64,000 nt of DNA, taken from NCBI GenBank assembly GCA_040954595.2, contig CM082588.2, positions 7,734,844 through 7,798,843 on the forward strand, read 5' to 3'. Positions 9,682-47,929 of this stretch are shown here, piece after piece. Below the pieces are notes generated by a model. The model ran no database searches and was not told the origin of the DNA. It saw only the letters and a program-made list of their open reading frames with translations. The stretch's first letter is position 1. Each line of letters begins with the position of its first letter. The stretch is from Balanoglossus misakiensis (lineage: Eukaryota; Animalia; Hemichordata). The translations under genes and the position numbers were made by a program.

Positions 9682-11200
9682 ATGGCGACCGGTGGTGCAT
9701 TTTTAACTACAGCCGAGAAGGTGAATCACGCTAGACTTTGTCGACTACTTATTGACGGCGGATCTAAAGTGGTGAGATGTGTATTTGACAGCAAGATTCC
9801 ACCTAATCTTACACTTGCTGACACACTGAGGAACCATAAAGTTTCGTTACAGAGACTTCGTCCAAATGTTATCAGTGATGGTCAGTGGGATCTGTTATAC
9901 CCAACCCAACCCAACCTTGTCAAGTCTGAAGACTTCGACATTACATTGCTCACAGCTTTATTACGGAATATCTGTGGCCTTCGACGTCCAGGACATAAAG
10001 TATGGAAATATCCCCCCACTGGTGATCTCGGTGTTGAAGCTGATGTGGCCCGAATAAGAGAGTTCAGGAATAGACTTCAACACATGACGGGCACAGCTGT
10101 CCCTGACAGCCAATTTCAATCTTTCTGGGATGACATTAGTAAAGTATTGGTACGTCTTGGCGCTAAGCAGGGAGATATTGATCAGTTAAAGACTGCGAGT
10201 ATGGACCTTGCCGAGACAGACAAATACGAACAAACTTTAAAGCACTGGGAAGAATCCGACATGGTGCTGGAAAAGTTCCTACAGCGTATGGAAGAGAAAA
10301 TTGGCGATCAAACTCGTGCGCTTGGTCAGATATCAGAGACACAGAGTGGCCATAGCAGTACTTTGGCTGATATCGAACAGAACCAACGGAAGAACCAACA
10401 AGAAACGACTCAACATCTTGGTCAGATATCAGAGACACAGAGTGGCCATAGCAGTACTTTGGCTGATATCGAACAGAACCAACGGGAGAACCAACAAGAA
10501 ACGACTCAACATCTTGGTCAGATATCAGAGACACAGAGTGGCCATAGCAGTACTTTGGCTGATATCGAACAGAACCAACGGAAGAACCAACAAGAAACGA
10601 CTCAACATCTTGGTCAGATATCAGAGACACAGAGTGGCCATAGCAGTACTTTGGCTGATATCGAACAGAACCAACGGAAGAACCAACAAGAAACGACTCA
10701 ACATCTTGGTCAGATATCAGAGACACAGAGTGACCATAGCAGTACTTTGGCTGATATCGAACAGAACCAACAAGAAACGACTCAACATCTTGGTCAGATA
10801 TCAGAGACACAGAGCGGCCATAGCAGTACTTTGGCTGATATCGAACAGAACCAACAAGAAACGACTCAACATCTTGGTCAGATATCAGAGACACAGAGTG
10901 ACCATAGCAGTACTTTGGCTGATATCGAACAGAACCAACGGGAGAACCAACAAGAAACGACTCAACATCTTGGTCAGATATCAGAGACACAGAGTGGCCA
11001 TAGCAGTACTTTGGCTGATATCGAACAGAACCAACAAGAAACGACTCAACATCTTGGTCAGATATCAGAGACACAGAGCGACCATAGCAGTACTTTGGCT
11101 GATATGCAACAGAACCAAAGGGAGATATCAGAGACACTGGTTGACATTAAAGAAGGCCTCAAGACTTCACATACCAGTGAGTCAAGAACATGTGTTCCAG
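9682..11200 (+). CDS. NLR copy 2, exon 1: HEPN (DZIP3-like) + coiled-coil repeat
   Basis: AAGATGGCG start; NHARLCRLL, FDITLLTALLRNICGL, ADVARIREFRNRLQH (R-x4-H), FWDDISKVLVRLG; donor CCAG|GTAATA. Confidence 0.9.
10324..11120 (+). repeat. Coding minisatellite, 96/84-bp units (order LLLLSSLS + partial)
   Basis: Unit starts 96 or 84 bp apart; GQISETQS[G/D]HSSTLADIEQNQ(R[E/K]NQ)QETTQHL. Confidence 0.95.
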
Positions 11201-11646
11201 GTAATAATTAAGATTGACAGGTTGAATGCATTTCTATGGCTGAAAATCTACAATAGGTTTTTAATAATTTGTATAATTTTTGGTCAAACTTAATTTTTCC
11301 TTCATGGTCTCATAAATTATATGTGCAGATAATACTTGTATTCCAACTAGGGCCAATCAGGGTTAGTTTATTTCACATGTCAAGTCTTGCGTCATAAAAC
11401 ATCACAAGCAAGTTTTACGGTATACTTATTTTTGCAATATATGAGAATGGGAATAATTAGGAAATCATGATAATTACAATCGCACTTTTCTAGGGAGTCC
11501 AAAATCATGTTAGGTGGTGACTTGTTGAGTTTTTGCAGCCAGGTATATGAATGGCGACTTCATGGTTGCTTAGTTTGAAAAAAAGATTCTGTTGTATACC
11601 ACCATTAAAAATAACTTTTTCTATAAATTCTCTCCTTTATCTCAAG

Positions 11647-11778
11647 ATGTTTCCTGTGCTTGGTGCAACTGTAAGAGTGATAATCTCAAGAAGTTTATAC
11701 GCTGTTGTGAAGTGATGTGTTGTGGGAAAGACTGTCAGAAACAACACTGGATGAAAGGTCACAGAGAAGAATGCAAAG
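11647..11778 (+). CDS. NLR copy 2, MYND-type exon
   Basis: Same splice signals as copy 1, 132 bp, CAWC...FIRCCEVMCCGKDCQKQHWMKGHREECK. Confidence 0.6.
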
Positions 11779-12411
11779 GTACAATTGATCATTTTCTGAA
11801 CTCCACGTGACCCCACGAGATTTCACGTAGCTAAGCAATTTATATGGGAGGACATTCCCCTGGCACAGGGCAAACAATTAACACGTCCCACCATATTCAA
11901 TGGCACAAACAATTACATTTTTGTTAAATTCTGCACCTCTTCTAATTTCTCAGCTACCAACCCGTTGCTATGGTAATTAACCAAGTTTCAGGAGATTTCT
12001 CAATGAGCTGGAAATCATCATTGTTAAAGTCTGAACCTATATAATTCTTATCTAGTTGCATACCAAGCTAGATATAGTATGAAAATATTCACAAACACCT
12101 TTTAGTACATGTAAGAACTTATAAATAAGATACTGAAAATTTCCATGTTTCACGCATAATGTTTGTATTCTCATGTGCAGAGCTGTCTGTCAAAAAGCTG
12201 GGGGTAATCACGACATGACCCTGCCTATGTGGAACACAATATGTGGTTCATATACTACGGTAGTTATGGGTCACAAGACTTCTAGTATACCATATGTAAC
12301 CCCTGACTATATTATACTTAGTACAATGATGTTTTACAGCTTGTGAAAATAAACAGCAACTATCTGCAATACAAAAGTCATACTATCAATATTATAATTG
12401 TGTTTCTACAG

Positions 12412-45475: not shown

Positions 45476-46093
45476 CTGCAAGAGAAAAAAGAAATGTATT
45501 CAAAGTCCATGAGCTGTAAGTTTAAGATTTTTTGAAATTATTGAGATCTTTGTATCAAGAACAGTTTCTCCTCGACTGATTTAAACATCATGAAATGCTC
45601 ACTGTTTATCAACACAGTTCATGTCTGTGCATGCAATCAGCATTGTTTGTTTGTTTGTGAACACTTGAATTCATTTCTCCAGAAACACTTACCACCAGTA
45701 TTACTTGTACACAGACTATGTTGACAAGCAGAACACTTTTTAGCATAATGAAAACGTACAGTCAAATAATAAAGCTAATGCCCAATTAAAAAGTACTAGA
45801 CCATGGCGTACATTTGAGTTTGAATGTCTCAAATAAACACTGATAGTTGGTGATAGTGATAAGTATATCTTTGGTGGTTGAGTTATGTTAGTATTATCTC
45901 CACAAATACTGCAACCCATCCAACATTACATTTTGAAAGCTTGTTGATGATGTCATCAACATAGACATAAATAAATATGGGAAAGTACACCTCCTTAACC
46001 TAACTACATGGATATATAGACGAACCCCCTATTAGCATTTTGACCTATCTGAAGTCAAATGCCATGAATATATTTAGGCGAAAACGAGGTTGA

Positions 46094-46104
46094 GGGGATT
46101 CCCC
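46094..46104 (+). promoter_or_regulatory. NF-kappaB-type site upstream of NLR copy 5
   Basis: GGGGATTCCCC. Confidence 0.55.
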
Positions 46105-46596
46105 GATGATATCACCATTACGGAAAACCATATATTTCTTTTTTGTTTATATGTACTTGCCTCCTAGTATTTTGCGCCAATGTCAGTGGCCTTCACATTT
46201 GAAATCGTAGCCCCCAAACATTGATTTGTTGGACTTTTCTACTCATATGATATAAAGTTACGAAAAACTTCATCTGATTGTATCCATTCTAACCACTTAA
46301 CTCTAGAACTCAAAATATTTCAAGTGAGTTTCACATATACATATACATGGAATGGTAAGGCCAGTCAAAATAGAAATGACGACTGTTTTCACAAGCTTCT
46401 GTTAGTTGCGGTTCAGACTGCGTGTTTGTGATTTGCACACAGAGTTGGAATTTGCGCCTGGTTTTTAGCAAATGTGAACATTTTAGTGTATCACCAACAC
46501 TGTTCGAGGTAATCTTGGAATTGGAGGTCTTCATATATCTGCGCCTAAGTGCTTCCAGAACTGGAGTCAAGTTGTGTTTTGCGATATCGTACAAAG

Positions 46597-47929
46597 ATGG
46601 CGACTGGTGGTGCATTTTTAACTACAGCCGAGAAGGTGAATCACGCTAGACTTTGTCGACTACTTATCGACGGCGGATCTAAAGCGGTGAGATGTGTATT
46701 TGACAGCAAGATTCCACCTAATGTGCTTGCAAACACCCTTAACAAGCATAAGGTTTCCTTAGTAAGACTACGAATGTCGTATAAAGGACCTAATCCAGGT
46801 CAAAAGGTTATCAGTGATGGTCAGTGGGATCTGTTATACCCAACCCAACCCAACCTTGTCAAGTCTGAACATTTCGACATTACACTGCTCACAGTTTTAT
46901 TACGGAATATCTGTGGCCTTCGACATCCAAGAGATAGAGTATGGACACATCCCTCCCCTGGTGATCTCCGTGTTGAAGCTGATGTGGCCCGAATAAGAGA
47001 GTTCAGGAATAGACTTCAACATATGACGGGCACAGCTGTCCCCGACAGCGAATTTCAATCTTTCTGGGATGACATTAGTAAAGTATTGGTACGTCTTGGC
47101 GCTAAGCAGGGAGATATCGATCAGTTGAAGACTGTGAGTATGGACCTTGCTGAGACAGACAAATACGAACAAACTTTAAAGGACTGGGAAGAATCCGACA
47201 TGGTGCTGGAAAAGTTCCTACAGCGTATGGAAGAGAAAGTTGACGATCTTGGTCAGAATCAACAAGAAACGACTCAACATCTTGGTCAGATATCAGAGAC
47301 ACAGAGTGGCCATAGCAGTACTTTGGCTGATATCGAACAGAACCAACAAGAAACGACTCAACATCTTAGTCAGATATCAGAGACACAGAGTGGCCATAGC
47401 AGTACTTTGGCTGATATCGAACAGAACCAACGGGAGAACCAACAAGAAACGACTCAACATCTTGGTCAGATATCAGAGACACAGAGTGGCCATAGCAGTA
47501 CTTTGGCTGATATCGAACAGAACCAACGGGAGAACCAACAAGAAACGACTCAACATCTTGGTCAGATATCAGAGACACAGAGTGACCATAGCAGTACTTT
47601 GGCTGATATCGAACAGAACCAACGGGAGAACCAACAAGAAACGACTCAACATCTTGGTCAGATATCAGAGACACAGAGTGACCACAGCAGTACTTTGACT
47701 GATATCGAACAGAACCAACGGGAGAACCAACAAGAAACGACTCAACATCTTGGTCAGATATCAGAGACACAGAGTGACCATAGCAGTACTTTGGCTGATA
47801 TCGAACAGAACCAACGGGAGAACCAACAAGAAACAACTCAACATCTTGGTCAGATATCAGAGACACTGGTTGACATCAAAGAAGGCCTCAAGACTTCACA
47901 TACCAGTGAGTCAAGAACATGTGTTCCAG
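46597..47929 (+). CDS. NLR copy 5, exon 1: HEPN + 6-unit coiled-coil repeat
   Basis: RNRLQH intact; repeat 47284-47847 = 564 bp = SLLLLL. Confidence 0.9.

Follow-up and report, generated by a model that had tools for sequence, protein, structure and literature searches.

NOD-like receptors (NLRs) in which HEPN_DZIP3 is combined with NACHT, with or without leucine-rich repeats (LRRs), WD40 or TPR units, are known from bivalves, corals, cephalochordates and cnidarians (PMC3710099, PMC9646362, PMC10236652, PMC13012124), and ribonuclease (RNase) activity is putative for the whole HEPN_DZIP3 family (PMC9646362). In corals, bivalves and invertebrate deuterostomes, few NLR types have expanded as strongly. 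Genes of this kind lie in tandem on a 64,000-nucleotide stretch from the hemichordate Balanoglossus misakiensis (contig CM082588.2, positions 7,734,844 to 7,798,843; the whole stretch is referred to as the window), where a coding variable number tandem repeat (VNTR) stands between HEPN and NACHT. The published receptors share with the window an N-terminal PF18738 with its Rx4H motif, a central NACHT, a repetitive C-terminus and copy-variable tandem arrays, whereas the available text of these reports describes neither a coil nor a VNTR between HEPN and NACHT. On balance, the repeat is probably a weak, half-polar coiled-coil stalk continuing the last HEPN helix, with its register and core kept and its length mostly tolerated. 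The receptor type is known; literature searches, from whose coverage subscription papers were largely absent, returned no account of the recurrent register-keeping stalk expansion or of a MYND finger within an NLR.

By their predicted domain order, the genes are NLRs of the HEPN_DZIP3-NACHT-LRR type, an architecture known in invertebrates. They form an array on the plus strand, with gene units of about 10 kb that are 91-95% identical over kilobase stretches within the window. NACHT domains are found in six long exons, and HEPN_DZIP3 followed by the repeat in four complete exons; a protein homologue search gave the hemichordates Ptychodera, Saccoglossus and Glandiceps as the closest relatives. 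HEPN_DZIP3 (PF18738) reaches 119-143 bits in the four exons (cut-off 27) and its Rx4H motif, RNRLQH, with Asn after Arg, is intact in all of them, the domain being a putative ribonuclease. As for NACHT (PF05729), E-values range from 1e-27 to 9e-29, with intact Walker A and B motifs in 6/6 exons.

Units and orders of the coding repeat

Unit decomposition reproduced the two units given in the preliminary description, a short one (S) of 84 bp or 28 amino acids (aa) and a long one (L) of 96 bp or 32 aa, and returned exactly the same orders: LLLLSSLS plus a partial unit of 22 aa in copy 2 (10321..11118), SLL in copy 3 (30568..30843), LLSSSSSLL in copy 4 (37937..38740) and SLLLLL in copy 5 (47281..47844). 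Unit number therefore varies by gene copy (8 plus the partial unit, 3, 9 and 6), with array lengths of 266, 92, 268 and 188 aa, so that the spacer range proposed at first (about 90-270 aa) corresponds to a measured 92-268 aa. Tandem Repeats Finder (TRF) scored the four arrays at 459-1271, vs. a cut-off of 50. Each array lies in a first exon that codes for HEPN, the coil and a hinge, located at 9682..11200 in copy 2 (PF18738 E 8e-42; Rx4H at 10066-10083), 29989..30928 in copy 3 (Rx4H at 30334-30351), 37274..38825 in copy 4 (profile match; Rx4H at 37682-37699) and 46597..47929 in copy 5 (profile match; Rx4H at 47005-47022). The HEPN of copy 3 lacks 13 loop residues ahead of the Rx4H helix. A fifth array, that of copy 1, ends at 1-141 with part of an L unit, one S and a terminal unit, and its exon end (1..225) continues through the hinge to a GT donor at 226. 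The first unit of copy 3 begins with VD instead of LG, and the extra 12 bp of L resemble a local duplication of the adjacent AGAACCAAC word.

The units are 98.3% identical within genes and 97.7% between genes, far beyond chance; the 26 full units comprise 16 distinct DNA variants, and copy 4 alternates Gly and Asp units. An identity of about 98% both within and between genes fits recent unequal crossover together with gene conversion, in support of the earlier proposal that unequal crossover gave rise to the length differences. That all indels keep the frame holds as well, yet this is expected inside an open frame, and the kept heptad register is the stronger fact. Self-similarity of the DNA at 21 or 42 bp received little backing as a cause of the in-register junctions (18 and 30 of 84 matches vs. 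16-29 at other shifts), although short microhomologies are present, and the long open reading frames crossing the repeats in the +2 frame and on the minus strand were dropped as by-products of the repeat.

That the copy numbers are assembly errors is scarcely credible. The arrays measure 276-804 bp and carry gene-specific unit variants and junctions, and one L unit is matched, with two differences, by a 126-nt public contig; what speaks for such errors is that the public contigs (three sets from one sample, in short pieces whose summed depths do not equal copy number) are too short for any of them to span an array.

Evidence for a probable coiled coil

The core positions are those first claimed (a = L,Q,L,Q; d = I,H,I,T). 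A hydrophobic period of 3.52-3.55 is the top peak in three of the four arrays and the second in copy 3. The insert of L turns one heptad into an 11-residue hendecad, which is a common stutter. When 4 residues are deducted per L unit, the stretch between the conserved Trp in the HEPN helix and the final Leu of the core has a length of 4 mod 7 in all four copies, although they differ in lead-in (7, 0, 7 and 14 aa) and the end junction of copy 2 is private. An AlphaFold monomer of exon 1 of copy 3, based on 44 hand-picked short homologues aligned with the four copies from the window, predicts a single helix at 163-260 and a second one at 269-299; the C-terminal HEPN helix runs straight into the repeat, and the predicted local distance difference test (pLDDT) is about 91 over the S unit. 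Taken together, the hydrophobic period, the modelled helix and the kept register support the original reading of a coiled coil with a four-residue stutter. Among the 26 full units, a/d-type columns hold 0 replacement and 4 silent changes, vs. 8 and 2 in the other columns (Fisher p 0.015). With the four coil-based explanations considered here counted jointly, the repeat likely forms a coiled coil.

The coil had also been described as marginally stable on account of its polar core, and this too found support: half of the a/d positions are polar, and in the available text of PMC13580157 polar-core coils are typical of trimers and polar designs fold only between two clamps. According to the same text, the polar residues most often found at a in trimers are Gln and Thr, and adhesins have long stalks with His at d. 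Like the window repeat, the trimeric coils of autotransporter adhesins have about half of their core polar, with Gln at a, His or Thr at d and hendecad inserts (PMC13580157, available text). They differ in being bacterial surface fibres, and no homology is implied.

In the preferred reading, that of a weak stalk of mostly tolerated length, ligand sensing would cause the NACHT domains to oligomerise, and the stalks would then zip in parallel and bring the HEPN domains together, whereupon RNA would be cut by the predicted RNase. Leu at a, Ile at d and the Gln, His and Thr layers would point to three or four helices rather than two; in GCN4 variants, Leu at a with Ile at d favours three or four helices. 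Unequal crossover and gene conversion would add or remove whole units, while selection would hold the register and the core residues, length being mostly tolerated. The hinge and the MYND finger would uncouple the twist of the stalk from the NACHT ring.

Several observations weigh against this reading. HEPN RNases usually act as dimers, with which a trimeric stalk fits poorly. Inclusion of the two partial units, which brings in one Ile-to-Met change at d, weakens the core test to p 0.06. The AlphaFold helix breaks at 258-266, in a heptad of the QSGHSST type; this heptad is a poor helix former (0.59 kcal/mol), and the unit as a whole, at 0.49 kcal/mol, has a poorer helix propensity than the homologue median of 0.455 (32 linkers). 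The net charge of the arrays lies between -13 and -42 and e/g salt bridges are absent, while a half-polar core is near the natural upper range. Finally, confident AlphaFold models were obtained for peptides that are unfolded in solution (PMC13580157, available text). This source supports zipping only on oligomerisation and equally warns against trusting the model.

Alternatively, the repeat may be a disordered, acidic, Q/S/T-rich spacer with no more than a residual heptad pattern, tethering HEPN to the receptor without any fold. The arrays are only 13-14% aliphatic, contain about 26% Ser+Thr and a Gly in every unit, are strongly negative and have a low helix propensity, and polar designs do not fold unless they are clamped (PMC13580157, available text). 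No proline is found in any of the four arrays, however, the register is kept in 4/4, the core columns show no replacements in full units and the repeat periods of homologues follow a 7a+11b rule (see below), which leaves the disordered spacer quite unlikely.

With the HEPN-coil model, Foldseek gave no match in the PDB at E 0.001 or better, and the VIA-align list consisted of generic long helices (Z 6.3-7.0), showing nothing beyond a helix. A profile search of solved structures gave at best E 0.015. In the ESM Atlas, no usable match was found for the repeat part; the whole exon matched HEPN_DZIP3 clusters at 0.90-0.93, with a recognition value just under the tool's mark.

Homologous linkers and the question of length

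HEPN searches yielded 250 proteins, with the HEPN end locatable in 246 and a linker of sufficient length for testing in 230. A significant internal repeat was found in 45 of these 230 linkers, the other 185 being without one. Forty of the 45 periods have the form 7a+11b, which covers 18 of the 42 possible periods, the exceptions being 8, 10, 23, 24 and 30. After collapsing kin, the form was found in 23/28 clusters at 70% identity (p 2e-5), 14/19 at 60% (p 0.007) and 12/16 at 55% (p 0.009). Since weak repeats of period 7 or 14 arise from any heptad pattern without duplication, 40/45 is an inflated figure, which tempers this support; among the clear duplications (repeat identity of 0.7 or more), 17/18 have heptad/hendecad periods. 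In a FastTree phylogeny of the 250 HEPN domains, whose deep support is weak and which was made without label shuffling, the 18 clear-repeat proteins and the window fall into 17 separate clades. Given the recurrence of 7a+11b repeats in separate clades, the helix behind HEPN is a trait of the family that has been extended repeatedly by units preserving the register.

The nearest HEPN domains are those of the Ptychodera flava HEPN-NACHT proteins P0001 and P0202 (51% identity; sister clade, support 0.98), whose linkers, unlike those of the window, are short and unrepeated. As these short-linker proteins are the tree neighbours of the window, homology of its unit to the homologue repeats is not claimed. 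Gln/Thr/His-rich heptad repeats after the HEPN helix, resembling those of the window, occur with periods of 14, 32 and 35 in the HEPN-NACHT-WD40 proteins P0002, P0003 and P0071; these belong to separate HEPN clades, have another NACHT type and no MYND motif, and their repeats are older or of other periods. Of the 246 linkers, 29 contain a motif taken from the window unit, with 44 occurrences in all vs. 4.5 in shuffles, although it was picked after P0002 had been seen and shuffling destroys the heptad pattern. As for the NACHT exon, its nearest relatives (37% identity over 86-99%) are P. flava P0082 and P0083, which carry DED, not HEPN, suggesting exon shuffling at a phase-1 boundary.

Concerning the length of the stalk, a control for neutral change is provided by a non-coding 184-bp repeat lying about 400 bp behind each stop, with 1.9, 11.9, 3.9, 1.9, 5.8 and 5.0 copies; the longest, behind copy 2, extends over 15631..17816 (TRF). 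The locus changes repeat numbers freely. Because the non-coding repeat varies just as much, mutation alone can explain the spread of coding lengths. Linkers of homologues, too, range from 28 to 307 aa (64 linkers for which Walker A could be placed), so that length may be no more than tolerated. Tuning by length, the rotational form included, is possible but on the unlikely side.

One form of tuning would be a selected avidity dial, each unit adding binding energy to a marginal coil, so that longer stalks would zip at lower receptor occupancy and trigger the RNase more readily; in addition, co-assembly of particular paralogues may depend on the S/L order. A parallel is found in Arabidopsis RPW8.1/HR4, where a cell-death effector of an NLR pathway carries a variable count of 21- or 14-aa helical repeats and their number alters NLR-dependent necrosis (PMC6684095, available text). 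In that system, however, the repeats are C-terminal in a protein separate from the NLR, with a HeLo/MLKL-like effector, and function was tested there only. Linker length also affects assembly in ASC (PMC9640978, available text), stalk expansion recurs in the 17 separate HEPN clades and a signal of diversifying pressure lies elsewhere in the same gene. Set against this are the non-coding 184-bp repeat, which varies as widely beside the same genes, and the 185/230 homologue linkers without a significant repeat, and the dial, though plausible, is considered rather unlikely. A broader version, in which invertebrate HEPN-NLRs repeatedly evolve a rheostat, the number of VNTR units in a marginal coil setting the ease of RNase zipping, the S/L order serving as a paralogue barcode and MYND as a skippable bait of a kind so far undescribed in animal NLRs, is less likely still.

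In the rotational form, the stalk would act as a stiff rod, its length and twist fixing how far from the NACHT ring, and in which rotational register to it, the HEPN domains lie. Ideal geometry does give rods that differ, with calculated lengths of 14-40 nm and supercoil twists of -236 to -781 degrees. Yet in 4/4 complete copies the last heptad gives way to a 14-aa Ser/Thr/Pro hinge with a terminal Pro-Gly (pLDDT below 50 in the copy 3 model), and in three of them (2, 4 and 5) the hinge is followed by a 44-aa MYND exon. A flexible hinge and an optional zinc finger cannot transmit twist; moreover, HEPN domains on one symmetric coil would meet regardless of it. The passing of rotational register to the NACHT ring, as the preliminary description had it, therefore lacks support, and the rigid rod is regarded as highly improbable.

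By themselves, variable linkers in NLR arrays are unsurprising. The locus points to a family-wide part that escapes domain scans, a probable coil directly behind HEPN that expands repeatedly by register-keeping units. Paralogues that are nearly identical but carry between 3 and 9 units, some with MYND and some lacking it, constitute a natural series on stalk length. If length matters, animals that lack adaptive immunity would have in it a simple, mutable means of setting the immune threshold; otherwise, the repeat still marks a probable element of oligomerisation and a domain architecture new for NLRs.

The MYND exon, the NACHT exons and other features

In copies 1, 2, 4 and 5, the repeat and NACHT exons are separated by a 132-bp exon with AG/GT ends and phase 1/1, located at 369..500, 11647..11778, 39590..39721 and 48701..48832, respectively. 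All four match zf-MYND (PF01753) above the Pfam cut-off (25-39 bits vs. 22.7), with E-values of 6e-9, 1.8e-5, 8.6e-9 and 6.5e-10; the delimitation follows the splice sites in the first three and the translation in copy 5. Only copy 5 has all eight canonical zinc ligands, the other three having Phe at the third Cys with a spare Cys nearby. The exon encodes 44 aa and is symmetric, so frames stay open with or without it: joining the predicted GT/AG sites in matching phase gives open frames of 1245-1499 aa in either case. In copy 3, the MYND exon has been deleted from a 266-bp intron (30929-31194), with the break near 31151-31153. Within the intron of copy 5, at 49624-49678, the 3' end of the MYND exon and its donor site are duplicated behind an insertion.

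Public run X3 contains one 650-nt contig, at a depth of about 8, which aligns to the NACHT exon starting at its acceptor AG, and whose 117 unaligned leading letters end in the final bases of the MYND exon. It is the predicted MYND-to-NACHT spliced join, seen once; the run type was guessed, and a processed DNA copy would look alike. Among the public contigs no other join is seen, a search of sequencing runs listed no RNA run carrying the locus, and no transcript evidence links the HEPN/repeat exon to the rest, which is a further point against a stalk within the receptor.

The position of the finger raises the possibility that the coil mainly serves MYND, gathering several fingers for the binding of a proline-rich motif from host or pathogen, MYND being an integrated bait or adaptor. 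Coil then MYND is the order in four genes, and the MYND-to-NACHT join is present in the public contig. In the chromatin reader BS69/ZMYND11, a coil likewise precedes a MYND finger, dimerises it and strengthens binding to viral EBNA2 (PMC4742278, available text), although there the junction of coil and finger is direct and the context is not that of an NLR. The repeat also has a weak match to the ZMYND8_CC profile (whole-protein E 6e-7, no single stretch being significant). Conversely, copy 3 keeps its coil without MYND, homologues have the coil while no MYND motif was found in the 370 retrieved proteins (with a pattern that recovers 3/4 of the window exons), the 14-aa hinge separates coil and finger, and 3/4 fingers have Phe for the third Cys. 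This role is accordingly thought very unlikely. MYND was likewise absent from a coral table of 1,691 NACHT/NB-ARC rows (323 HEPN entries) and from six amphioxus supplements, and the available text of PMC3499355 mentions zf-MYND and NACHT, but separately. In the homologues P0231 and P0233, which have TRIM-like bodies (with filamin and NHL repeats in P0233), a B-box zinc finger comes after HEPN and a short coil, so that HEPN-coil-zinc finger arrangements recur.

The exons carrying NACHT and the LRR-like part are located at 1127..3933 (copy 1; PF05729, acceptor), 12412..15227 (copy 2), 31195..33995 (copy 3), 40345..43160 (copy 4; profile match and splice sites in copies 2 to 4), 50271..53134 (copy 5; profile match) and 58023..60847 (copy 6). 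No Pfam LRR match was found in them. The LRR-like solenoid was judged from one modelled copy, copy 5, in which strands and helices alternate from residue 519 and which matches NOD2, NLRC4 and NLRP3 over most of its length (E 1e-26 to 1e-20). The ratio of nonsynonymous to synonymous changes (dN/dS) is 0.39 in HEPN, 0.30-0.47 in the NACHT core and 1.4-2.6 in the C-terminal helical and LRR-like half (alignment codons 400-968 of the NACHT exons), values that are pairwise, without a significance test and drawn from recombining paralogues, and that carry less weight for it. The NACHT exons are mosaic, the nearest paralogue changing along the exon. Both the C-terminal dN/dS and the mosaicism are as expected of putative diversifying sensors under gene conversion.

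Copy 6 has no HEPN, repeat or MYND exon upstream, these having been lost between about 56682 and 57442. Its NACHT-LRR exon is still open over 940 codons with intact Walker motifs (region 56682-60847), and the copy may be either a recent pseudogene or an effector-less sensor partner. Copy 7 is truncated where the window stops, leaving the start of its HEPN exon (63849..64000).

Exon-like pieces of an unrelated gene occur twice within the array (6945-8143 and 26216-27382), as part of a 2.5-kb duplication (5749-8207 and 24975-27473). They have no significant Pfam match and are tentatively labelled AAC4-like. Finally, a 290-bp palindromic element, whose summed contig depth is very high in public runs, lies in the introns of copies 4 and 5 (about 39197-39490 and 48317-48606), with pieces elsewhere in the window, and is probably a miniature inverted-repeat transposable element.

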